The notes under the pieces are model-generated. The model worked only from the letters and a program-made list of their open reading frames with translations, ran no database searches and was not told where the DNA came from. 64,000 nucleotides of DNA from a virus, in the IMG/VR virus record IMGVR_UViG_3300042880_000420, positions 32,001 through 96,000 of that record; one strand, 5' to 3'. The translations under genes and the position numbers were made by a program. Positions 33,924 through 61,639 of this stretch are shown here, in pieces; positions within the stretch are counted from its first letter, which is position 1; the number at the start of each line of letters is the position of its first letter.

Positions 33924-34277
33924 TTACTTAATTTCTAATTTCTTTTTTTTAATAAAAGAATATGCTTGTTCAGTAAGAAAATCACATAGCCAAGCTTGTG
34001 TTTCTTCATCTACAACATCTCTGTCTTCTGTTATTCTAACTGCAGCATGATAAATTTCGTGTGCAATTGTGTTATGTGAAAGATATTTCTGTTCTATAAT
34101 TAAATAATAAGACTCCATTTCAGCACTAATCAATATTCCTTCTAATTCATAATCATTATTTGAAGTAACATTATATTTTTTGTAAACCTTATCTACTTCT
34201 TTTTTTATATTATCAGAAATAATAAATTGTAATTTACAATTAAATGTTTCAATATTTATTATCTTTTTAACTATCAT
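33924..34277 (-). CDS. Small zincin-like metallopeptidase (HExxH)
   Basis: TIAHEIYHAA...DEETQAWL: HExxH plus a downstream Glu. Confidence 0.6.
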   Translation of the reverse strand: MIVKKIINIETFNCKLQFIISDNIKKEVDKVYKKYNVTSNNDYELEGILISAEMESYYLIIEQKYLSHNTIAHEIYHAAVRITEDRDVVDEETQAWLCDFLTEQAYSFIKKKKLEIK

Positions 34278-35161
34278 TACAAATTTATATAATATGATTT
34301 AAACATATTGTAATACTTACCGTACATTGCTTCTCTGTTCATTTTCCAAACATTATACATTTCTTTAAAGTCAGGAGTATTTACAATAGTGAGAGCATTG
34401 TTTCTTGCAGGTCTCATTCTTTGTTCAACCAATTGCATTCTTTGTGTAACATCTTCACCATTCATGTATAGATTTTCAAGAATACGTTGTTTAATCGCAT
34501 ATTCATAATATTCATTAATCATAGGATGATCTAATACAAGAAGATTACCATTCTCATCTTCTAAGTTACCCAAATAGTTTACATACACGGTACCTGTTTC
34601 AATTCCTATAACGTATAAATATCCATCTCTGAGTTCTGCTTCCATCCAATTGTCATATTCTGGTTTCTTAGAACATATAGGATCTACTGCTCTAGCAGGT
34701 CTTACCCAAAGTCTCTTAAACTCTCTAAATTCTCTTGTTAAATAATTTCTTTTTTCTATAACTTTTACATAAGTGTCTTCACACACTACATAAGTACTTT
34801 CACAAGCACATGTAGATTCAGGTTCTTTGCAAGTATTACAACATGTTGCTGTTGGTTCTACTATAACATTTTCTGTATGTCTTCCTTGCATCACTTCTTC
34901 TTTTACATGATAGTCAGCACAAAGAACAGCCATAGTAAGTACATAAAAATCATCTGGAAGTTTAACTCTACCGTTTATGATTTCTAAAACTTTTTGTTTT
35001 TCAGTGTTAATTCTAAGTCCAAGATCATAATTAATTCTTTGTGCAACTTTAATAAGTTGACCAGGCTCAATCATACCTTCAATTTCATAAGTGAAAAAGT
35101 CAGTGCGTACCTCATCCATTAACTCATCAAATGTTCTATATTTTACAAATGTGTTTGCCAT
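34277..35161 (-). CDS. Tail ring / tail tubular protein (P22 gp4-like)
   Basis: LEIINGRVKLPDDF...VYVNYLGNLEDENGNLLVLDHP...YEYAIKQR; position just upstream of the muzzle as in crAss-like phages. Confidence 0.6.
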   Translation of the reverse strand: MANTFVKYRTFDELMDEVRTDFFTYEIEGMIEPGQLIKVAQRINYDLGLRINTEKQKVLEIINGRVKLPDDFYVLTMAVLCADYHVKEEVMQGRHTENVIVEPTATCCNTCKEPESTCACESTYVVCEDTYVKVIEKRNYLTREFREFKRLWVRPARAVDPICSKKPEYDNWMEAELRDGYLYVIGIETGTVYVNYLGNLEDENGNLLVLDHPMINEYYEYAIKQRILENLYMNGEDVTQRMQLVEQRMRPARNNALTIVNTPDFKEMYNVWKMNREAMYGKYYNMFKSYYINL

Positions 35162-35163
35162 TT

Positions 35164-35856
35164 TTATCTTGATATATTTTTATTATCTTGGGTGTTATCT
35201 GTAGGTATCTGTAGCATAATACCAAGATCTTTCATAACATTAGACTCTATTTCACCATACAAATAATCAGGAACATTAAATGCAGAATCTTGTCTAGATG
35301 CACAATTGTATTCTTGGTTTTCATTACATGTAATACATTTATACTTAGATATATCATCTTCAAACACTCCTTCTATTCTTACACTAGGCCATATAATATC
35401 TGGAAAATATAAATGATCATTTAAATACCAATAATAATTTGTTTTGTTATATTTAAAATTTTTAGAATTAGACATTTGTACATACTGTGTAGGACTAATT
35501 GGTTGTAAATCAATTTGACCATCTAAAGAAGTCACTTGTCTAATAAGTGGTCCCCAGTACCCTTGCATAAAAATTGGAATATTTTCTTTTGTTCTCATAA
35601 CTGTTATATTAGTTTTTAAACCAGTACAACCTGCTTCTATCCTATCTACCTCAATTAATTCAACATTATCAAGTGTTTGTATAATTGAATTAAATTTCAT
35701 AAGATTACTTTTAGAATCTTCTCTTTTCATTAACCACTTTGCGTGTTTAGAAACAATGCTATAAAGAAATCTGTCCGTAAGAAATGCATCCTGACGAACT
35801 GCTTTTATTTGGTTTCTAACCCTTGATAATACTTCTCCAATTGTTGTCTTGCTCAT
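35164..35856 (-). CDS. Tail ring protein
   Basis: YYWYLNDHLYFP...VRIEGVFED pattern and synteny with crAss-like ring genes. Confidence 0.55.
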   Translation of the reverse strand: MSKTTIGEVLSRVRNQIKAVRQDAFLTDRFLYSIVSKHAKWLMKREDSKSNLMKFNSIIQTLDNVELIEVDRIEAGCTGLKTNITVMRTKENIPIFMQGYWGPLIRQVTSLDGQIDLQPISPTQYVQMSNSKNFKYNKTNYYWYLNDHLYFPDIIWPSVRIEGVFEDDISKYKCITCNENQEYNCASRQDSAFNVPDYLYGEIESNVMKDLGIMLQIPTDNTQDNKNISR

Positions 35857-35866
35857 TTTATTATTA

Positions 35867-36451
35867 TTATGTCATATCAAATTCATCATAGCTTTCCATT
35901 AATAATTCAGTTTCTTTATCTTTTTTGTCTGTAAAGACTTGTTTTCTGAATAATCTTGAAACTCTAGCCATATTGTCAACAACAACATATTTCTTCCATT
36001 CGGTAGGATATGTTTTGCTGACAGTTCTTTTAAAATCTCTTAATGCAGTAAAACCCCACACTTCGTGAAATTTAAATCTGTATTTAGTTTCAAAATTTGT
36101 GTAAAATATTTTAGCTAAAAGCTGGTCAGATTCCCAATTTTGATGCTGCACTTTTACACCGTATTTTAAAGAGCTTTTTACATCGGTGTTTTGTCTTTTT
36201 TTCTTTTGACATGTACCAATGAATACATACCCAAGTTGTTCTAGTAGCTCCAGCCCATCTCTTTTTTCTATCACAGTTTTCCACAAATTTTCATTAAAAG
36301 TTTTAACAACTTCTTTAATTTGCTTATCTGTTAGATTTTTATATTCTTCTTTTTTTTCTCTGATTTTATTACAAAATTCAGCGTTTAGAATATTATATCT
36401 TTTAGCCCTATATCTAGGTGCATTAAGATCTGGCTTATTATAACTAGTCAT
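35867..36451 (-). CDS. IHF/HU-like DNA-binding protein
   Basis: Basic protein; LTDKQIKEVVKTFNENLWKTVIEKRDGLELLEQLGYVFI resembles the HU/IHF helix-helix-strand start; crAss-like phages carry IHF-like genes in the tail module. Confidence 0.55.
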   Translation of the reverse strand: MTSYNKPDLNAPRYRAKRYNILNAEFCNKIREKKEEYKNLTDKQIKEVVKTFNENLWKTVIEKRDGLELLEQLGYVFIGTCQKKKRQNTDVKSSLKYGVKVQHQNWESDQLLAKIFYTNFETKYRFKFHEVWGFTALRDFKRTVSKTYPTEWKKYVVVDNMARVSRLFRKQVFTDKKDKETELLMESYDEFDMT

Positions 36452-36511: not shown

Positions 36512-37804
36512 TTAAAATAATATTTTATGTTCAAATATTCTATCAGTATTTTTTTCTACAATATCAAATGAACATCCAGCTTTTGTAGGTCCAAAGTTTG
36601 TTCCAATCCATTTAGAACCTCCAAACAAAGACAATGCATTTCTATATCTGAAGTTATATGATTGTTCTGAAGTGTTTTTATGAAGATCACCTTTTATAAA
36701 ACTTACATAAGAAACATCTGGATCTATTCTATTATACATTAAGTATTTATTAATGTAATTCTCTGTCTTATCATTAAGATGAAGAGGAAGTCCGTGTTTC
36801 ATATCTTCTGTATCTTTTCCATGAGATAACAAGAACACGTGTTTACCATAATAAATATGATCTATAAACTTCTCTTGTACAGATGTTTTAACATAGGGAT
36901 ATTTTGCATTAACATAAATCTCAAGTGCTCTACTTACCATGTAGTCAAATATGCCACCATGATTAGAACATGCGTTTGATATAATGTGATAGCTTTCTGC
37001 ATAATCACTTGTAAATACAACATCATAAAAGTTTTTTTCTACAGTAAGAACATTTTCAAATGCTTCTTTATCTGTCATATTTTGTGGCAGTTTATGCCCA
37101 CCTCTAGTAGTTTGAGCATTCATACCATCCATTCTATCTCCAAGATCTATAATGTATATATCACTAAATCTTTTATAAAGGTTGTGCAGATATTGTATTT
37201 CATACAACACATTATACATCCTAGATTTAAATGTTAAAAAATTGTAATTGTTCTTGTACATTGCTTCTACATCATCTACATAAGCTGAAATGTGTTTATC
37301 TGAAGTGTATACAAATAATGCTTTTTCATTAGTTATTTTAACAGAATCTGTTCTTTTGTGCACTTGCACATTACTAAAAACTTTATTTAATATTTCATTA
37401 AAATCTTCTACATTAAGTTCATTTTCTTGCTTTTTAGTAATCATTGCAGAAATAACCCAATAGTCATTACCATTGTTTTTATGTTGTTTATTCCAATAGG
37501 AAGAAAGCTTCCATTTGGTAATGTCAATCTTTAAAATTTTTTCTATTTCTTCTGCTGTTTTTGGCTCTTCTAAAGCAATTGCTTTAATTTTTGCTGTACC
37601 TTCAGATACATTTTCAGAAAACTCAATAATCTTTTCTTCTAATACACCTATATAGGAATTTTTTTCTACATCTTCAATTGTTTTATTAATAAAAAACTGT
37701 TTTCTACTAAGGTATTCTGCAATATTAATACCTAATCTTTTAGCGCATTCTTTATTAGATTTTTTAGATTTAATAGCTTTTAAAATGTCATTATCTGAAA
37801 TCAT
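36512..37804 (-). CDS. Calcineurin-like metallophosphoesterase with N-terminal HTH-like segment
   Basis: Metal-binding motifs SDKH, DLGDRMDG, SNH, SHGKD and GDLH in canonical order; N-terminal SNKECAKRLGI. Confidence 0.8.
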   Translation of the reverse strand: MISDNDILKAIKSKKSNKECAKRLGINIAEYLSRKQFFINKTIEDVEKNSYIGVLEEKIIEFSENVSEGTAKIKAIALEEPKTAEEIEKILKIDITKWKLSSYWNKQHKNNGNDYWVISAMITKKQENELNVEDFNEILNKVFSNVQVHKRTDSVKITNEKALFVYTSDKHISAYVDDVEAMYKNNYNFLTFKSRMYNVLYEIQYLHNLYKRFSDIYIIDLGDRMDGMNAQTTRGGHKLPQNMTDKEAFENVLTVEKNFYDVVFTSDYAESYHIISNACSNHGGIFDYMVSRALEIYVNAKYPYVKTSVQEKFIDHIYYGKHVFLLSHGKDTEDMKHGLPLHLNDKTENYINKYLMYNRIDPDVSYVSFIKGDLHKNTSEQSYNFRYRNALSLFGGSKWIGTNFGPTKAGCSFDIVEKNTDRIFEHKILF

Positions 37805-37820
37805 ATATTTATATTTTATA

Positions 37821-37850
37821 TAAAGGTAAATAATATTTTTAAAATATCAA
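37821..37850 (-). promoter_or_regulatory. Bacteroidota-type promoter for the phosphoesterase gene
   Basis: Minus strand TTG-N19-TACCTTTA, one mismatch from the Bacteroidota primary-sigma consensus TTG-N(~19-21)-TAnnTTTG. Confidence 0.5.
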
Positions 37851-37880
37851 TACTTCAATGTTTGAAATGTGTTTATAATT

Positions 37881-37912
37881 AAAGACCCCAGTTAAGAATA
37901 ACTAGGGTCTTT
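37881..37912 (-). terminator. Intrinsic terminator-like hairpin
   Basis: Minus strand AAAGACCCTAGTTA-ttct-TAACTGGGGTCTTT followed by AATTAT; one U-G wobble that works only in the minus-strand RNA. Confidence 0.6.
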
Positions 37913-37936
37913 GCCAGAAAACCAACAAACTGACAA
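37911..37936 (-). ncRNA. Candidate regulatory RNA hairpin with UUUGUUGGUUUU loop
   Basis: Minus strand TTGTCAG-TTTGTTGGTTTT-CTGGCAA: 7-bp stem with one G-U pair, directly followed by the terminator hairpin, inside a ~290-bp non-coding gap. Confidence 0.35.
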
Positions 37937-38096
37937 TTTTTTAAAAATGATTAAGTTATTTCAATACATGGTTAAGGTGGGTTTTATACTTTCACCATTG
38001 TAAATAATGTATAAGCACTTGTTCTCATAGAGGGTTTTGCTTTAATATTGTTTTAAAATTTATTTTTATAAAATGACGTAATATATTTTTTATAAA

Positions 38097-38360
38097 TTAG
38101 GGATATATTACTGTTTGCCAAGACCCGCCAACAAACGTATATAATACATTAGTAGAAGTATCAAGTCCAAGTCTTCCTTCAACTATATTAGTTATGGGAA
38201 AAATAGATACAGATGCTCCTGTAATCAAAGAAATACTATCCAGTGTATTTGATGTGTTTTCTATATCAGCAATAAGTTTATTAACAACAGCAATTCTGTT
38301 ATTGATATCTTTTGCAGTTGCAAAATATGAATTTTTACTTAAATTTTTTATTCCAGACAT
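38097..38360 (-). CDS. Small fibre-associated structural protein
   Basis: Coiled coil followed by EGRLGLDTSTNVLYTFVGGSW, a fibre 'G-x-x-x-x-D-T...Y...W' repeat unit. Confidence 0.45.
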   Translation of the reverse strand: MSGIKNLSKNSYFATAKDINNRIAVVNKLIADIENTSNTLDSISLITGASVSIFPITNIVEGRLGLDTSTNVLYTFVGGSWQTVIYP

Positions 38361-38372
38361 TTCTTTATATTT

Positions 38373-39890
38373 TTATGTTATTGGAGCACATGGATCGCAA
38401 GGGCATGCTGTAACACAAAACTGTGCATTTAAATATTGTGTATTTTTAATTGTATTGAGCATGTCTAAAATGTATTGTTTAGAAAAAACACTACATAAAG
38501 ATGAATTAATATTTTCTAATATTTCTATACTATTAGGATTTTCAATTTCTAATTGATTATTATTTGTAACAAATAAATTATTATTTTCACATGTTGCATT
38601 TAAATTTCCTACATATACTGCGCATTCAGCAGGAATATAATAAGCACATCCTTCAGTATCACATTGTACAACAGGATCTTGTGGATTACAATCTTCTGTA
38701 TAAGGATTACATGGTAAAGTGCTAAATATCTCTACATCTCCGTATAATGTACTTACGCTATTTGTAGCAAAAGCTCGTATATAATATGTTTTGTCGTTTG
38801 TAAGACCAGACAATTTTGTAATAAATGGATTTGTTTGTGCATAATTAAAATCATTTATTACATTAGAATTACTTGTAGTAGGTAGTATTTGTGTACTACT
38901 CCAACATATTCCACGTGCTGTAATTGCTACACCACCATTAAAAACAACATCACAACCTGTAATAGCTGTATTACTTGTTATAGAATACGGAGGAACAGTA
39001 ATTACAGTGGGGCCTCCCAATGTTGCTACACTAAAAATTTCTCCATAAGTTGTACCATTTGTATTAGTAGCAAATGCTCTAATATAATAAGTTGTACCAG
39101 CTGTAAGACCACTAACTGTACCAGTAAATGCACCTGTACCAGTTCCCATTGTAGTGTTAGTAGCAGAAGACATATCTATACTAAGACTTCTTTGTATTCC
39201 TCTAGAAGTAACAGTAGAGCCACCACTTGCTGTAACATTACCACCAGCAACAAAAGATGTAGATGTTAAACTTGTTATTGTAGGGCTTGTAGTAACAGAA
39301 GGAGTAATAGAACTTGTAGTAAATGTTTTTACATCACCATATGATACTCCAGATATTGTCTCTACATAACATCTTATTTTATATATTGTATTAGGCAATA
39401 AACCTAATAAAATACTTGTAAACACTCCACCAACAGAAACATCAGTAGTTTTACTATCATTAATATCTGGATCTGGATTTGTTGATATATCCCAACATAC
39501 ACCTACGTTACTAATGGTTCCTACAATTCCTGTAAAAGAACCTCCGGAAATAGCAGTGCTAGATGTTATAGAACTAGCGGCAGTTGTTACTAAACTAGGT
39601 GTAGTGAATGACCACTGATTTCCATAATATACATTAGACAAAGCATCAATAATATATGCTCTAACATAGTATGTAGAACCTGCACTAAGAGATGTTAAAT
39701 TTAATGAGTAATTAGCTGTACTATTTCCTGCAATACTGTTTGTAGAATTAGCAGTGGTAGGATTACCAGTTGTATTCCAACACAAACCTCTAAATGCAAC
39801 AGTACCACTACCTATAATAGAGTTACCTCCACTAGTTGCACTAGTAGAAGTAATTGCTGTAATATTATTAGTGTTAAGACTGTATGCCAT
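38373..39890 (-). CDS. Fibre/adhesin with four FnIII-like repeats and a C-terminal Cys-rich module
   Basis: Four repeats of ITS.SA.SGG...RG(L/I)CW...L..L...T.Y.(V/I)RA(Y/F)...YG...F.T; Cys-rich tail. Confidence 0.7.
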   Translation of the reverse strand: MAYSLNTNNITAITSTSATSGGNSIIGSGTVAFRGLCWNTTGNPTTANSTNSIAGNSTANYSLNLTSLSAGSTYYVRAYIIDALSNVYYGNQWSFTTPSLVTTAASSITSSTAISGGSFTGIVGTISNVGVCWDISTNPDPDINDSKTTDVSVGGVFTSILLGLLPNTIYKIRCYVETISGVSYGDVKTFTTSSITPSVTTSPTITSLTSTSFVAGGNVTASGGSTVTSRGIQRSLSIDMSSATNTTMGTGTGAFTGTVSGLTAGTTYYIRAFATNTNGTTYGEIFSVATLGGPTVITVPPYSITSNTAITGCDVVFNGGVAITARGICWSSTQILPTTSNSNVINDFNYAQTNPFITKLSGLTNDKTYYIRAFATNSVSTLYGDVEIFSTLPCNPYTEDCNPQDPVVQCDTEGCAYYIPAECAVYVGNLNATCENNNLFVTNNNQLEIENPNSIEILENINSSLCSVFSKQYILDMLNTIKNTQYLNAQFCVTACPCDPCAPIT

Positions 39891-49695: not shown

Positions 49696-49836
49696 TTAGT
49701 TTGAATTATTTGTTTGTACAGCCAAGTTTTGTTCGTAAGAAGTAACACATGTGCTGCACACTTGTTTTCCATCTGATGCTGTTCTAACTTGACAAGAACA
49801 ATTAATTGATGTACCGCAGTTTTGACATGTTCTCAT
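49696..49836 (-). CDS. 46-aa Cys-rich (zinc-finger-like) protein, not in the ORF track
   Basis: Manual translation MRTCQNCGTSINCSCQVRTASDGKQVCSTCVTSYEQNLAVQTNNSN; fills the gap exactly between two genes. Confidence 0.7.
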   Translation of the reverse strand: MRTCQNCGTSINCSCQVRTASDGKQVCSTCVTSYEQNLAVQTNNSN

Positions 49837-49837
49837 A

Positions 49838-50425
49838 TTAATATTGGTTTTTGTGACAATCTTTACATCCTCCTATATATTTATCAAGTCGTTTTTTAGC
49901 ATATGTTAATAATTCCATAGCTAAATTAGGATCGTGACAATCTTCTGCTTTTACTTTTGCCGCATCAAAATAAGATTTAATTAACCTTAATTCGTTTAAT
50001 CTTGCTCTTATTTCTACAGGGGGTTCACACGTTGCTAATTCAAGTTTACATAATTGTTGATTATAAACATTATAAGTTTGTGTCAATCTTAAATGATAAT
50101 ATTCAACATAAACTTGATCGTTAGGACTTACAGAATATTTAATTTTATAAATACCATCAGGTAATGCAGGTGCTTGTGGAGTACAATTACCAGAAATAAT
50201 TCCTAAAGTACAAGCATTTAACACCAAATTAAATGATGCCATACCGCTACTAGCATATGTTGTAACATCTATTTCAGCTGGTTCTGTAAATCCAGGAGAA
50301 GTAATTTGTAATGTAGCACATTTAACATCAAGTCCTTGTTGGTAAATACTTGCATCAACAACTCTAAAAATGCTTACATTATTAGTTTCGGGAATATCTA
50401 AATACAATTGATGTTGTGCTGGCAT
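49838..50425 (-). CDS. Structural protein (possible tail hub subunit)
   Basis: LPDGIYKIKYSVSPN Ig-like strand followed by a helical C-terminus; synteny with crAss-like tail hub genes. Confidence 0.45.
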   Translation of the reverse strand: MPAQHQLYLDIPETNNVSIFRVVDASIYQQGLDVKCATLQITSPGFTEPAEIDVTTYASSGMASFNLVLNACTLGIISGNCTPQAPALPDGIYKIKYSVSPNDQVYVEYYHLRLTQTYNVYNQQLCKLELATCEPPVEIRARLNELRLIKSYFDAAKVKAEDCHDPNLAMELLTYAKKRLDKYIGGCKDCHKNQY

Positions 50426-50478: not shown

Positions 50479-50512
50479 AAAAAAAAAGAGAGGAATAAAT
50501 CCTCTCTTTTTT
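50479..50512 (-). terminator. Rho-independent terminator after the auxiliary capsid gene
   Basis: GAGAGGA-5 nt-TCCTCTC stem flanked by A/T runs; U-tract on the minus strand. Confidence 0.8.
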
Positions 50513-54964: not shown

Positions 54965-54988
54965 GTTTGGTTTTGGTTTGGTGAGTTG

Positions 54989-55035
54989 TTCCCAACGAAG
55001 GCTGCCAGACTTCTAAAATAGGCGTATGTTGGGAA
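54989..55035 (-). promoter_or_regulatory. Structured 5' leader element (stem with nested hairpin)
   Basis: TTCCCAAC (54989-54996) pairs with GTTGGGAA (55028-55035), enclosing a GAAG-9 nt-CTTC hairpin; GC-rich island in an AT-rich gap. Confidence 0.4.
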
Positions 55036-55792: not shown

Positions 55793-57436
55793 TTAGAACG
55801 ATGATCCAGTAATTGGATTACGCATCACAATTTTCAACACTTTTGTAGGATCTTTCACCCAAATTGCTGGCATTGTCTGAGACATCATTACACGGTATCC
55901 ATTAAAGTTACCAGAACTTTGGAATCCTTGTGTACGACCCATATAATCCATGGTACCATTTTGATAGAACCATTTCAATTGATTATCCCAGCTTAATTTC
56001 AACAAGAAGATGTTGTCATTAGTGTTATCTGTAATATCAAAGATGATAAAGTTATAAGATGATAATGGGAAACCGTCAATTAATGGATTCTCAATATCAT
56101 TTGTGTGTACATTATCAAAAGCAGGATTCAACACAAACTTAACATTTGCTAAGAAAGGAATTACATACTGAGTGTAAGCAAATCCAAAGTTAAGATCCAT
56201 ACCTTGACCGGTAATAGCACCAACCTCACGTGCATTAATAACCATACCAGATGCAACAGCTTCTTTCTTAATAGCTTCATTAATCATCTTCATACCACCC
56301 ATACCAGTTTGTACTACAAGACTGCGTTGAGGATCAGGTCCTTTAAATTCAACCTTACCATTAAAGAAGTTAAATATTTCAGCACGGAACAAATCAAGTG
56401 TAAAGCTAGATTTATTGTAAATGCGTTTATAAGAATTATCAAGTTGTTTCCAAAGACCTACAGACAAACGAATATCATCTGGACCATCTTGTTTCAAACG
56501 ACCACCTTGACCCCACATAAGGTAAGTTTCAATGTCATTAGCAATCTTAGAAAGATGTGCAGCTTCCAAAGTTGTTAAGAATGTACGAGAAAGTTGACCA
56601 TTTTGGTATGCTTTTTTAACATAATCAGGTCCCATTTTCTCAGCCATTTTTTCAAGAGAAGTGATTGATGGATCCATTGACTTGTCAAAGTTGCGCCACA
56701 ATTCAATTACTGGAACTGTACCATCAGCTTTCATACCACCTTTCATCATCATGTCAGCTTTAGAGCTAATAGAATAATGAACGTGAGCTTCAGCACCTCC
56801 TACAAAGTTGTAGAATTCACGGAAACCACTGCGAACTTCTCCAATATCAGAGAATCTTTCTCCATATTCTCCACGTGCAGAACCTTTACGAAACACTTTA
56901 GATCCAATTTTAAAAGGATTAGCAGTGTTGCAAATAATAGCTTTAGTGCTATCATTGTTTACAATTTGTACAGTGTAAACAAAAGAATCACCAGCTGGAA
57001 CAATATCATCAGCAGTGATATAAAGTTCTACACCATTATATTTGTCATAAGTGATAATATCACCGTGACCAAATACACGTCTGTTAAGACGAATTTTAAA
57101 TGTAGTACCATCAACACCATAAGCAGTGCTTGCGCTACCACCATTGGTAATGTTTACTTCTTCAGTAAGGTAAGGCAAATCTTGAGCTACAGGAACTTGC
57201 CACTTATACTCACCGCGAGCATTATCTACCATAATTACATTTTTACCACCAAATGAAGACATTTGATAGAGGGGCATTTCTACTTTTTGTGTCATTGCCC
57301 AAAGGTCTACTGGACCAAGGTCCATAGGTTCTGCTGATTTCAGCATGTTAGTCATATGGTATGAATCTACATGAGAACTAGTTTTGTAGTTATTATCACG
57401 CAGGAATATACCATTGTTTAAAACTGGTGTTGCCAT
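55793..57436 (-). CDS. Major capsid protein (crAss-like HK97 fold)
   Basis: 547 aa with high-expression codon bias; portal-scaffold-MCP order; YLMWGQGG...GLWKQL, GFAYTQY and IWVKDPTK segments typical of crAss-like MCPs. Confidence 0.85.
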   Translation of the reverse strand: MATPVLNNGIFLRDNNYKTSSHVDSYHMTNMLKSAEPMDLGPVDLWAMTQKVEMPLYQMSSFGGKNVIMVDNARGEYKWQVPVAQDLPYLTEEVNITNGGSASTAYGVDGTTFKIRLNRRVFGHGDIITYDKYNGVELYITADDIVPAGDSFVYTVQIVNNDSTKAIICNTANPFKIGSKVFRKGSARGEYGERFSDIGEVRSGFREFYNFVGGAEAHVHYSISSKADMMMKGGMKADGTVPVIELWRNFDKSMDPSITSLEKMAEKMGPDYVKKAYQNGQLSRTFLTTLEAAHLSKIANDIETYLMWGQGGRLKQDGPDDIRLSVGLWKQLDNSYKRIYNKSSFTLDLFRAEIFNFFNGKVEFKGPDPQRSLVVQTGMGGMKMINEAIKKEAVASGMVINAREVGAITGQGMDLNFGFAYTQYVIPFLANVKFVLNPAFDNVHTNDIENPLIDGFPLSSYNFIIFDITDNTNDNIFLLKLSWDNQLKWFYQNGTMDYMGRTQGFQSSGNFNGYRVMMSQTMPAIWVKDPTKVLKIVMRNPITGSSF

Positions 57437-57481: not shown

Positions 57482-58714
57482 TTATCGTTTAAAAATATTT
57501 GTTTGTCTAGGAATTTTTCTAACCTGTTCACTTTGCGATGTATTCACAGAAGATGTAGCTTTGTTTCTTGATTGTTCAGTTTTAAGTTGTCGTACAGTTT
57601 GTTCTACCGCTTGGTTCTTACCTTGCTTCATCAATGAAGATCTATAATCATCAGGATTAGAAAGTAACCACAAAGCTTCTGCTATAAGATCGTATCTTGG
57701 TTCCACATATTGGTATTTTTCCAATAAGTGTCCTAAAAGATTTGTAGGATTACCATTTATAGAAGGATATTGAGGTTGTGTTAATCCGTTATATAAGAAT
57801 GACTGCACCTTTTTATCAAGTTTTACGCCCCCCAATTCACCTTGTCTTAATGTTTCAAAAACATTTTGTACATAAGCATCAGCGGCTTGTTCTTGCTGTT
57901 TTCTCATTATTTCTTGCTCTGCAAGTTTAGACTGAATCATCTCTTCTTGCATAGCATCCAACTTAGGTTTAAATTGCTTTGCTTTCTTTTCCAGTTGACC
58001 AAGATCTTTCCAGTTGTTTACTTCTTCTTCAATTTCATCATTGTCACCAAAGTTGGTTGCTTGAAGATAAGAGCGTACAATTGATTCTTGATCACCGTCT
58101 GATTCAGGATTTAATTCTCTCACCTGCTCTACTTTAGCTAATGCTTGAAATAATCCTTTAAGATCTTGTCCTCCATCTGCTACATATTTAGCAGCATACT
58201 GAAGTTCTTCCGGAAGACTTTCAAAAAACTCAGCAGGTGTGTGAGAAGCTATTTCATTTTTTATATTAGAAATATTAGCTTGCCAAAGCTCATCCAAATC
58301 TTTTTCATTCAAAGAACTAATATAGTCGTCTAAAGTTTGTTTCTCTTCATCATAGTCGTCAAAAGCAAACATTTCCTTAGACTCAATTCTTTTTTTAAGA
58401 AAGCCTACAAGAGATGATTTTTCTGTTTTAGGTCTTCCTCTCTGTACTGTTTCTTCTTCTGAAGAACTATCATTTACAATTTCTTCATCTACAATACTTT
58501 CAATTACATCTGTTTGGCTAGGTTGTTCTGGTTCGTCCAAAAAAGAAACATCTGTTTGTGAACTAGCAAAAATATTAGGTTTTTCCTCTGTTTCTTTTGT
58601 AGAAGAAGCTGAGGTCATGACACTATCCGCTCCAGGTGCACCAATCCAGCTGTCTATATCAAGATCTACTTGGTTAACAGATGTTATATCTGTTGGGTTG
58701 TTGTTGGTTTCCAT
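57482..58714 (-). CDS. Acidic scaffold-like protein
   Basis: Very acidic N-terminus, coiled coil; located between portal and MCP. Confidence 0.6.
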   Translation of the reverse strand: METNNNPTDITSVNQVDLDIDSWIGAPGADSVMTSASSTKETEEKPNIFASSQTDVSFLDEPEQPSQTDVIESIVDEEIVNDSSSEEETVQRGRPKTEKSSLVGFLKKRIESKEMFAFDDYDEEKQTLDDYISSLNEKDLDELWQANISNIKNEIASHTPAEFFESLPEELQYAAKYVADGGQDLKGLFQALAKVEQVRELNPESDGDQESIVRSYLQATNFGDNDEIEEEVNNWKDLGQLEKKAKQFKPKLDAMQEEMIQSKLAEQEIMRKQQEQAADAYVQNVFETLRQGELGGVKLDKKVQSFLYNGLTQPQYPSINGNPTNLLGHLLEKYQYVEPRYDLIAEALWLLSNPDDYRSSLMKQGKNQAVEQTVRQLKTEQSRNKATSSVNTSQSEQVRKIPRQTNIFKR

Positions 58715-58733
58715 GTTAATTATTGGTTTTAAT

Positions 58734-58750
58734 TACATTATTAATATACG
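58734..58750 (-). promoter_or_regulatory. Putative late promoter for the scaffold-MCP operon
   Basis: Minus strand CGTATATTAATAATGTA upstream of 58714. Confidence 0.45.
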
Positions 58751-58894
58751 AATTAAACTCTAAAGATTTATAACAAAATGTTTTTGTCATATTTTGTTTC
58801 GGATAATAAGGCTATAATTTTTAAATGTTGTTTAATACTTTTAATATATCTTTTAAAACAAGAACGTAATTTACTTTACAAATAATTAAAAGCA

Positions 58895-61639
58895 TTATTT
58901 TTTATTTTTATCTGCTTTAATTTCAAATTGTGTTCTATTTGTTCGAGCTATTTCTAATTGTTTATTAGCAATATCCTGTTGAGTTTGAATTTTTTCTCTC
59001 TCAATATCTAGCTTTTGTTCATTAAATCTTGTTTTATTTACTTCTTGTTCACGTTTAAGATTGCTAGTATCTGTATAATTTTGTTGTTGTTGAATTTTAG
59101 CAAGAGCATCTTGATAATCAGACATAGCATTTTGGTTAATGTCTTGTGTTGCACCATATCCAGCAGCTCTAATTTCAGCTTCAACAATTCTTGCTTGTCT
59201 ATCCTTGTCTTTTTCTTCAGCAATAAATTGTTGTTTCATCATCTCTTGTTGTTGAAGAGCTTCTTGTTGTTTTTGCTGCATTTCTTGCTCATGTTGCTGC
59301 TGTTGTTGTCTGATGCTATTAGCTTTCTCTTCAGTTTTTTTCAAAACATTTGTAAGTTCTGCAATAGATTCAGATTTAATAACGTTTCCAAGATCATAAA
59401 TACTAGCACCTGTAGTGTTATTATTTAATGCTAAAGATTTAAGCTGTTCCATTACAGCTCTAGAATTAGTTTTAGTAGTGCAAAATATGTTAAGATCACG
59501 CATCAAAAGATCTGTACCATTAATTTGAAAATTAACCTTTTCATCCGCAGATGTAACATATTGAAGACGCACCGAGGGTTTTGTAGAATTATAATATTGA
59601 GCTAGTTCTGTTCTCATCTGATGTACTCTAGGCATCAAATTGTCACTATGCTGTACAAAATACACTTCTGTTTGATTGTAAGAAGCATTTAAAGCTTGTT
59701 CTACACCTGTTGCAGTTTGTTGTGCAATTTGTTGTCCCATTCGCTGAGGATTAACACCAATTACCTCAAATGCTTGAGTTTTAAAATAGTTAGCTAAATT
59801 AATCCTAGACATTAAACGCTGTGTTTGTTCTAAATTTAACACCTGATAGTGTTGAAAATTAAGAGCATTTTCAGTGTTAGTTATAGATGTATCTAAAGGT
59901 AACATCTGGAAGTTTTTCATAGCAACATATGCATTTGCTAAATTGTTCTTTCCCCAATCTTCTCCCATTGAATGTCTGGGTAGGGCGTTCTGATCAAACA
60001 TAATAACTGTACCTAACTCATCTATTAATATATCAGCTATTTGATTGTTAACTATATTATAACCTATTTGAAAAGGTTTCATAAGATCCACCATAGATAC
60101 AGAACGTGTATTTCTATCTGAAAATACAGCTCCCTCTACAGGAGGTTTGCAACCATAAAGAGTTGTATCTCCTTTAAATTGGAATGGAATTTTACCCGGT
60201 TTACCACCATTTAGTCCAAGATATATTGGATTAAAACCACCTGGATTATTCATACCCCAAAAAGAAGGTCTATTTGGTCCTATTTTTATACCACCCCAAA
60301 CTTCATTAATCCAAATCCAATCTATATGTTCTCCAAATACTAAATTGTCTTTTGTTTTTTCTTTATATAAGCTAGTATCATACAGAGGTTTGTCAGTAAT
60401 TTTGTAGTTTTCAGCTACAATATCTTGTATCATTTCACCTAATTCTGTAATCTTTGTAAGGTGTCCCACTCTACGTTGTGACTTCCAATATACAGTAGTG
60501 CAACGCAACAAATGTGCATTACCCCAATCAAAAAGATCTTCTGACTCATTTAATATAGATTGAATAACATCACCACTCCATTTTGTATTGTCATATGTAC
60601 TCATAAACTGTCTATATGCAAGACCTGGCATCTGAGTATTCCAATCATGAGATCTTGTTGGATCATAATAAGATCCATCATTTTGCATACCTGGAAGTGC
60701 ATATCCAGCAGATCTTACAGGATAAATAACCTCTAAAGCTTTAAGTTGCTCTTCATTCATCATCCACCCAAACTTATCTATAACATCTGCTACAGTAAGT
60801 AAATCAAGCATTCCTATCCAATGAGCTTCAGATATGTAACGAGCAGAAGCAGACTTATGATAGAAAACTTGTACAGGATTCCAAAGCTCAATTTCATAAT
60901 CATCATCCATCATTCTAAAATGCCAAAATTCTCTATCTGTAATTAACATGTCACGAAATGCTCTTTCTTCCAATTCATCCATGTGAAATCTTTCTACATC
61001 TACTTGATGTTGGTGCGTAGCCCAACTTTCATATAGATTTCTGTAGTCTTTTTTAAAAAAGCTTTCAATTTCTGGTAATGATTTTAATTTATCAGGAGAC
61101 ATTTCTTGTTGAAATTCTTCAGATTGAGGGTCCATTCCCATATTAATAAGCTTGTTCATCATTTTAGCTTGTGCTTTTTGCATAAGCACTTCTTCAATCA
61201 TGTTCTTTTTTTCTTCTAACATTTCATTATATGAAAGCTCATCCACCGTTCTAAACATAATTTTAGAAGCTCTCTTACTAAATTCAGAACATAAGACATT
61301 AATTACATTAGGTATAATAGGGTAGAATTTAAGTTCTAATGCTGTCTTATCTTCTTTAGTTAGCATATCAATAAGCTCACCATTAGGGTTATCTTCTTCA
61401 ACTATATAATCTGTTTTATCGATAATACCCTTTGCTAATTTATAATTTTTAAGTAAACGTACAGCATTACGTCTAAGTTGACGCATACCCTGCCACTCTA
61501 ACCAGTCTAAATTCCATGCTCTCCACTCATCATCCTTTTCAGCTTCTGGTAGAAATTGTACAGGTTGCATAAGGCTCCCCATTTTATTGTACTCAACTTT
61601 CTTGCCTGCCTTGAGGTCAAGTGCATTATATATTTGCAT
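58895..61639 (-). CDS. Portal protein
   Basis: KFYPIIPNVINVL, WIWINEVWGGIKIG, SMVDLMKPFQIGYNIVNNQ, GVNPQRMGQ...TATGVEQ and Q-rich C-terminal barrel, typical of crAss-like portals. Confidence 0.9.
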   Translation of the reverse strand: MQIYNALDLKAGKKVEYNKMGSLMQPVQFLPEAEKDDEWRAWNLDWLEWQGMRQLRRNAVRLLKNYKLAKGIIDKTDYIVEEDNPNGELIDMLTKEDKTALELKFYPIIPNVINVLCSEFSKRASKIMFRTVDELSYNEMLEEKKNMIEEVLMQKAQAKMMNKLINMGMDPQSEEFQQEMSPDKLKSLPEIESFFKKDYRNLYESWATHQHQVDVERFHMDELEERAFRDMLITDREFWHFRMMDDDYEIELWNPVQVFYHKSASARYISEAHWIGMLDLLTVADVIDKFGWMMNEEQLKALEVIYPVRSAGYALPGMQNDGSYYDPTRSHDWNTQMPGLAYRQFMSTYDNTKWSGDVIQSILNESEDLFDWGNAHLLRCTTVYWKSQRRVGHLTKITELGEMIQDIVAENYKITDKPLYDTSLYKEKTKDNLVFGEHIDWIWINEVWGGIKIGPNRPSFWGMNNPGGFNPIYLGLNGGKPGKIPFQFKGDTTLYGCKPPVEGAVFSDRNTRSVSMVDLMKPFQIGYNIVNNQIADILIDELGTVIMFDQNALPRHSMGEDWGKNNLANAYVAMKNFQMLPLDTSITNTENALNFQHYQVLNLEQTQRLMSRINLANYFKTQAFEVIGVNPQRMGQQIAQQTATGVEQALNASYNQTEVYFVQHSDNLMPRVHQMRTELAQYYNSTKPSVRLQYVTSADEKVNFQINGTDLLMRDLNIFCTTKTNSRAVMEQLKSLALNNNTTGASIYDLGNVIKSESIAELTNVLKKTEEKANSIRQQQQQHEQEMQQKQQEALQQQEMMKQQFIAEEKDKDRQARIVEAEIRAAGYGATQDINQNAMSDYQDALAKIQQQQNYTDTSNLKREQEVNKTRFNEQKLDIEREKIQTQQDIANKQLEIARTNRTQFEIKADKNKK

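Follow-up and report, generated by a model that had tools for sequence, protein, structure and literature searches.

Base-pairing sRNAs derived from 3' UTRs, such as CpxQ, SroC, DapZ and MicL, share the terminator of the mRNA from which they originate. In S. aureus, the C-rich loop seeds of RNAIII and RsaE pair with G-rich or Shine-Dalgarno (SD) sequences, and sX13 of Xanthomonas is reportedly an sRNA with a loop seed directed against ribosome-binding signals. The boxB hairpin of the lambda nut site has a 5-nt loop, is located near the promoter and needs an N-type protein. It has been documented that, in enterobacteria, the G/U-rich seed of GcvB silences C/A-rich ACA translation enhancers (Yang, Figueroa-Bossi and Bossi 2014, PMC3879156), and that SD sequences are not read by the ribosomes of Bacteroidia (PMC7797042, PMC6847099). 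The regulatory RNAs of Bacteroidota phages are essentially unexplored, and the pair of sequences described here bears on the question of how translation is tuned in organisms without Shine-Dalgarno pairing.

The pair is a simple one, a 12-nt loop and a 7-12-nt leader tag, both conserved in hundreds of contigs of uncultured phages and both pointing at capsid-flanking genes, and the hairpin that presents the loop is, judging from its sequence, a strong candidate for a phage RNA tuning the translation of head-assembly genes. Its likeness to GcvB lies in a G/U-rich single-stranded seed (UUUGUUGGUUUU) that faces C/A-rich motifs at, or slightly 5' of, the ribosome-binding region in several mRNAs, with a peak of the motif at -20 to -11; it differs in that a hairpin loop presents the phage seed, the RNA belongs to a 3' UTR and is encoded by a phage, and the probable phage host lacks Hfq and SD-based initiation, and between the two there is no homology in sequence or structure and no Rfam match. 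Like CpxQ, SroC, DapZ and MicL, the phage element lies directly after a stop codon, ends at the putative intrinsic terminator of the operon and combines a conserved seed with candidate trans targets; the 3'-UTR location with an own terminator, typical of such sRNAs, was found in the relatives, and complementarity between seed and target starts at two orthologous genes. In contrast to them, it is very short, virus-encoded and apparently aimed at the late genes of the virus itself. As in RNAIII, RsaE and sX13, the seed is in a loop and the same short motif is targeted at several start regions, but here a U/G-rich loop faces an A/C-rich motif and no SD sites are involved. What it has in common with boxB is the small size of the hairpin, a loop that is conserved while the stem varies, and a place in a phage operon ahead of an intrinsic terminator, here a putative one; unlike boxB, it has a 12-nt loop at the very 3' end of a long operon, and, in place of the promoter-proximal position of nut sites, it follows the final stop codon, some 12 kb downstream of the nearest preceding strong terminator.

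The phage and the locus of the hairpin

The window, that is the whole stretch of 64,000 nucleotides analysed, comprises bases 32001-96000 of a single 109,032-bp contig (about 29% G+C; IMG/VR record IMGVR_UViG_3300042880_000420). The phage is a freshwater crAss-like phage: no RNA run is among the sequencing runs listed as containing it, the DNA runs are mostly lake-water metagenomes, and the window, in which every gene is on the minus strand, contains giant cargo and polymerase ORFs together with the following crAss-type genes:

34277-35856, minus strand: tail ring proteins 1 and 2
55793-57436, minus strand: major capsid protein (PF23898)
58895-61639, minus strand: portal

Among cultured phages, Leptolyngbya phage Lbo-JY46 has the closest capsid protein, with 28.6% identity; a blastn search of the hairpin region against cultured phages gave no match, and the loop motif was not above chance in Lbo-JY46 or in a gut phage record with a homologue of the phosphoesterase described below. 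As regards the host, SD-like motifs occur in only 2-8% of leaders, and TATCTTTG and TATATTTG rank with the most over-represented 8-mers in the 30 nt ahead of start codons in eight genomes (G000-G007). Both match the Bacteroidota -7 promoter box TAnnTTTG, and the enrichment of this box close to starts implies very short 5' UTRs and a Bacteroidota host. The SD-poor leaders and the enriched -7 box would thus be compatible with such a host, and they fit the premise, made in the preliminary description of the locus, of a host that does not use Shine-Dalgarno pairing.

The hairpin is located in the gap 37805-38096, between two minus-strand ORFs, an 87-aa ORF and a 430-aa gene, and this is, as first described, the largest inter-ORF gap of the window. 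The features of the locus, in the direction of transcription, are:

38373-39890, minus strand: gene of a 505-aa protein with FN3-like repeats (fibre-like; weak FN3 matches)
38097-38360, minus strand: 87-aa ORF, specific to the window phage and a near-identical copy (L001)
37943-38096, minus strand: spacer between the 87-aa ORF and the hairpin, not conserved and specific to the window phage
37911-37936, minus strand: stem-loop with 5' arm UUGUCAG, a 12-nt loop and 3' arm CUGGCAA, one U-G pair
37918-37929, minus strand: loop UUUGUUGGUUUU, candidate seed, whose complement is AAAACCAACAAA
37881-37912, minus strand: terminator-like hairpin of 13 bp, with one U-G pair and a short U tail
36512-37804, minus strand: downstream gene of an HTH-like and calcineurin-like phosphoesterase (phrog_22398)

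The stem around UUUGUUGGUUUU has 7 bp as it was originally drawn, and 6 bp when the minus strand of 37870-37950 is folded alone. The fold of the minus strand with both hairpins, an element of about 65 nt, reached -25.3 kcal/mol (z -4.8) and that of the plus strand -17.0 kcal/mol; the greater stability of the gene strand upholds the orientation which had been argued from the G-U pairs. Where a terminator had been described directly after the hairpin, a 13-bp hairpin does adjoin, but in the window phage the U-tail is weak (UUU followed by AAUUAU) and a simple consensus terminator scan made no call, whereas at the homologous place in relatives a GC-rich hairpin is followed by 5-10 U. Of the range 37881-38050 which had been assigned to the element, the part with the hairpin and the terminator is conserved, and the upstream part (37943-38050) is not conserved in relatives.

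In most relatives, 2-15 nt separate the stem from the upstream stop codon and the distance from stop to loop is 8-26 nt, compared with 167 nt in the window phage. The long distance in the window is due to an inserted ORF: the 505-aa protein is a full-length homologue of a 502-aa protein of genome G001, in which the hairpin follows the 502-aa gene directly and the spacer is absent, hence the 87-aa ORF and the spacer represent an insertion. The gene preceding the hairpin varies between phages and the downstream gene is constant, and in many relatives a host-type promoter box is found closely 3' of the terminator. Since the relatives have no space for a promoter, an independent sRNA gene is unlikely, and of the two forms first proposed, a separate small RNA or one derived from a 3' UTR, it is the second that agrees with the location. 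Judged by this arrangement, the element belongs to the 3' UTR of the last gene in the late operon and is not a separate gene.

The product of the downstream gene, which lies in a block of structural genes, has conserved metallophosphoesterase motifs, and the protein is named calcineurin-like phosphoesterase in Cellulophaga phage records. Its N-terminus is HTH-like (CANRLGIS...) and fused to the metallophosphoesterase; in distant relatives of the protein, recognisable conservation is limited to the N-terminal ~130 residues.

Conservation and covariation of the hairpin

To follow the element in other phages, relatives of the downstream gene were collected from IMG/VR, giving 77 contig loci with 24-100% protein identity. 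The hairpin and the terminator were found upstream of the same gene in 76 of the 77 loci (including one with an extra gene between the hairpin and the downstream gene), and in those 76 a GC-rich hairpin with a U-run comes 0-25 nt after the hairpin. The loop is nearly unchanged among the relatives, (U)UUUGUUGGUUU(U), its columns being invariant or more than 90% conserved in two alignments (A3 and A5, with 45 and 34 distinct sequences), and it is unpaired in per-sequence folds. By contrast, the stems are diverse yet complementary, as in gtcagtgg/ccacctgac, aggagg/cctcc, cactgg/ccagtg, gtttag/ctaaac and gtagtgg/ctactgc.

RNAalifold found no structure in a plain MAFFT alignment, since the register of pairing differs from clade to clade; it was replaced by folds of the single sequences and by a sub-alignment without gaps. 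Each of the 42 distinct sequences forms the hairpin, and for 37 of them the fold is more stable on the gene strand. In the ungapped alignment of 34 distinct sequences, two-sided changes were observed at 5 of the 7 stem pairs, G-U was the commonest pair at two stem positions, and the covariation score was 0.683, which 0 of 500 shuffles reached, against 0.224. In the same alignment 93.7% of the cells were paired, compared with 71% in shuffles, a percentage that is inflated since the sequences had been selected for at least 5 contiguous pairs, which does not inflate the diversity of pair types.

A covariance model (R1) scored 41.2 bits at the window hairpin and identified one strong or recognisable copy per genome in 7 of 8 complete genomes, the window phage included; the variant hairpin of G001, with loop UUUUAUUUUGGUUUU, was missed by the model. 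In an exact-match scan of IMG/VR with one loop variant, 34 further examples of hairpin plus terminator, with new stems, were present among the first 80 matches listed, the remaining ones being chance matches. No Rfam family reached its gathering score over the whole window, and none was supported by E-values on the gap. Weak Rfam matches to SSRC34_2, rli38 and Spot 42 were rejected as driven by the terminator. On the whole, the conservation of hairpin and loop, on which the initial proposal had been made to depend, was observed with covarying stems, and the element is very probably a real, conserved, structured RNA at the 3' end. The covariance model can be used to annotate it in viromes. In some clades only, the loop may form a pseudoknot with the A-rich spacer before the terminator.

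The leader motif and the genes that carry it

The leaders, 971 of thirty nt each, come from eight complete or near-complete genomes in which ORFs were called by one uniform procedure. AAACCAA, the complement of the loop core, is the top over-represented 7-mer among the 16,384 possible ones, with 49 occurrences against 12.1 expected from a second-order Markov model (z 10.6), and it is present in leaders of all eight genomes; the longer form AAAACCAA was counted 33 times, with 5.7 expected. In windows from -30 to +15 around the starts, AAACCAA occurs 61 times, where its letters in the 20 other orders average 18.5, and AACCAACAA 12 times, compared with a mean of 1.7. Its 5' end is most frequent at -20 to -11, the motif itself lying about 5-20 nt ahead of start codons, and its strand bias is pronounced, with AAACCAA in 45 leaders and the reverse complement in 1. 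Inside operons the motif occurs also within the upstream coding sequence, which argues that it acts at the RNA level. Moreover, the continuations CAA and ACA after AAACCAA, which extend the pairing to the UUUG of the loop, are each about 5 times above the prediction from composition. Over the whole window AAAACCAA is unremarkable (13 found, 7.6 expected), but its placement at starts and its conservation are far beyond chance, even if counts at orthologous leaders are non-independent events. Thus, the enrichment at starts that had been predicted was found by the count, and the loop is indeed antisense to a start-codon motif, its complement being the top leader 7-mer and position-specific.

The three start-codon sites first quoted, at ATGs 58714, 54964 and 49836, are real and on the gene strand. 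The genes concerned and a terminator of the same region are:

58701-58730, minus strand: leader and start of the 410-aa gene, with AAAACCAA at -16 and AAACCAACAA at +4
57482-58714, minus strand: candidate target 1, gene of a 410-aa scaffold-like protein, between the portal and major capsid genes
54965-54983, minus strand: leader of the 337-aa gene, with CACCAAACCAAAACCAAAC directly before the ATG and tandem AAACCAA
53951-54964, minus strand: candidate target 2, gene of a 337-aa protein, two genes after the capsid gene
50482-50512, no strand assigned: strong, perfect bidirectional terminator, with a 13-bp stem and A6 and T9 flanking runs
49837-49851, minus strand: leader of the 46-aa ORF, with AAAACCAA at 49844-49851 before ATG 49836
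49696-49836, minus strand: 46-aa zinc-ribbon-like ORF with two CxxC pairs

Around ATG 58714, AAAACCAA occupies 58723-58730 and AAACCAACAA 58701-58710; the latter comprises 10 nt complementary to the loop, with a computed duplex energy of -12.8 kcal/mol. Ahead of the 410-aa orthologues, all eight genomes have the motif at -12 to -19, with 7-12 nt matching, and wider sampling found it in 62 of 62 distinct leaders for this gene. The 410-aa protein is charged and helical with a conserved C-terminus, and from gene order we infer that it is scaffold-like. In most relatives a promoter-like block, GTATATT followed about 6 nt later by TGTAGAGATACA, is located 5' of this gene (window 58731-58800, minus strand; loci L353-L432), and it would imply a 5' UTR of about 28 nt, nearly all of it the AAACCAA region.

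In the 337-aa gene, AAAACCAA is found at 54967-54974 before ATG 54964, on the gene strand, and the motif recurs in the leaders of 8 of 8 genomes, the matches at the two orthologous genes together spanning 7-12 nt, and in about 49 of 52 distinct orthologous leaders, usually in two or three tandem copies. The protein shows 73-85% identity between genomes, and the phosphoesterase 29-60%, its conservation being far above that of neighbouring proteins. It gave no sequence match in Pfam, PHROG or PDB, and no meaningful match in Foldseek, with an AlphaFold model that is only partly confident; in this model the C-terminal half alone is confident, and mostly helical. Within the 5' UTR of the same gene (window 55010-55030, minus strand), UUCGUUGGG resembles the loop core and could pair with the ACCAA repeats of its own leader; it is conserved among the closest relatives only.

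The 46-aa ORF starts 2 nt past the stop of the previous gene, so that its leader lies inside the end of that gene, and G002 conserves the ORF with the same AAAACCAA leader; an ORF of this size is easily missed by length cut-offs. Perfect complements of the loop at starts measure 10-13 nt in the genome of the window phage, among them 11-13 nt at three small genes that lie beyond the window or at its edge, and 11-12 nt in G004 and G006.

The terminator at 50482-50512, between a 636-aa and a 195-aa gene, probably marks the end of the capsid-gene transcription unit. With the two main target genes in one operon and the hairpin at the end of another, on the far side of this terminator, any pairing would take place in trans.

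Possible roles of the loop and the leader motif

The pairing in trans of a 3'-UTR RNA with C/A-rich leaders appears to be the best explanation, to which we give about an even chance, because the loop is the exact complement of the top leader motif and both are found clade-wide. Genome-wide duplex energies support pairing weakly in the window genome, where 10 leaders reached -9 kcal/mol or lower against 3.2 expected, a result equalled by 2 of 150 permuted loops; in G001 and G002 the same test with permuted loops gave no significant result. AAACCAAACAAA and AAAACCAAAAAACCAAA, the forms most common in leaders, complement the loop imperfectly and could pair only with a bulge or a mismatch. Compensatory changes between loop and leader cannot be demonstrated since both partners are nearly invariant, and few variant loops have leaders on the same contig; for the one clear loop variant, that of G001, the leader match is only suggestive.

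A different possibility is that the hairpin is the site of a phage or host protein that controls read-through of the terminator, in this case into the phosphoesterase, tail and virion-polymerase operon, or the stability or processing of the mRNA, the complementarity to the leaders being incidental. A conserved loop on a variable stem is the pattern of hairpins recognised by proteins, such as boxB and RAT, and favours this possibility, as do the constant placement of the hairpin, always followed by a terminator within 0-25 nt and, further on, by the same gene, with a variable gene before it, and the well-conserved HTH-like N-terminus of the downstream protein. We consider it rather unlikely all the same, since a fully conserved loop of 12-14 nt is unusually large for a protein operator, its complement is exactly the top leader 7-mer and extends to 10-13 nt at several starts, the element is at the far 3' end of the transcript and not near the promoter, and no candidate RNA-binding protein can be named. 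For a decoy built around an RNA-binding protein, which had also been suggested, nothing was found in favour. The exact complementarity of a 12-nt loop, invariant across 24-100% protein identity, and the CAA/ACA continuations that match the rest of the loop are left unexplained if AAACCAA is a C/A-rich, unstructured translation enhancer, standing in for a ribosome-binding site in a host that does not heed SD sequences, and the hairpin is unrelated to it, a structural feature of the 3' end, or a competitor for the factor concerned. This seems quite improbable to us, even considering that the positional preference of the motif is sharp, like that of a ribosome-binding site, that the motif is often in tandem repeats, that only 2-8% of leaders have SD-like motifs and Bacteroidia ribosomes ignore SD sequences (PMC7797042, PMC6847099), and that in Lbo-JY46, which has no exact copy of the loop motif, the orthologous leader is AAACAAUAAACAA, without CC. 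By analogy with GcvB, an enhancer role of the motif and its silencing by the hairpin can be compatible, and the target motif itself would plausibly promote translation, as in GcvB targets.

A reading at the level of duplex DNA, in which one DNA-binding protein recognises AAAACCAA/TTGGTTTT both near starts and in the intergenic region, or in which the sequence is the leader of an 18-aa ORF on the plus strand (37948-38004), is hardly credible. It is true that the plus strand reads AAAACCAACAAA 19 nt before the ATG of this ORF, and that the downstream gene has an HTH-like domain. However, the covarying stems often contain G-U pairs, which on the opposite strand would become A-C mismatches, and only on the gene strand are the hairpins followed by U-runs. 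The leader motif keeps to one strand (45 to 1) and is found inside operons in upstream coding sequence, and relatives lack the spacer with the 18-aa ORF. Covariation and strand bias largely exclude a DNA-level reading, and both the plus-strand ORF and a DNA-level operator were rejected on these grounds and for lack of conservation.

Returning to pairing in trans, we suggest that the stem-loop with its fixed G/U-rich 12-nt loop, followed by the intrinsic terminator, would form the 3' end of the late operon, and that a 3'-UTR fragment shielded by the terminator hairpin would accumulate late in infection. Its loop would pair with the C/A-rich, Shine-Dalgarno-less leaders inside the 30S footprint, and the pairing would most likely lower the translation of head-assembly proteins in the manner of GcvB, activation or stabilisation being the alternative; repression of the synthesis of the scaffold-like and 337-aa proteins as late transcripts accumulate would be the simplest direction. 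If the pairing is functional, no conserved riboregulator would have been described in crAss-like phages before this one, which would also be a case in which a virus controls the stoichiometry of its own assembly with a 3'-UTR RNA. It is possible, rather than probable, that AAACCAA is a clade-specific substitute for a ribosome-binding site in hosts with SD-blind ribosomes and the hairpin, arising as a by-product of late transcription, a master anti-leader riboregulator that times or limits the synthesis of the scaffold-like and other head-assembly proteins across hundreds of phages, which, if true, would represent a virus-encoded, chaperone-independent translational control of its own morphogenesis.

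In G001, the genome with the loop variant, an intergenic sequence (L019, about 36105-36125, plus strand) reads AAACCAACAACTGAC. It is found without a stem partner and resembles the antisense of the window loop plus its 5' stem (AAAACCAACAAACTGAC).
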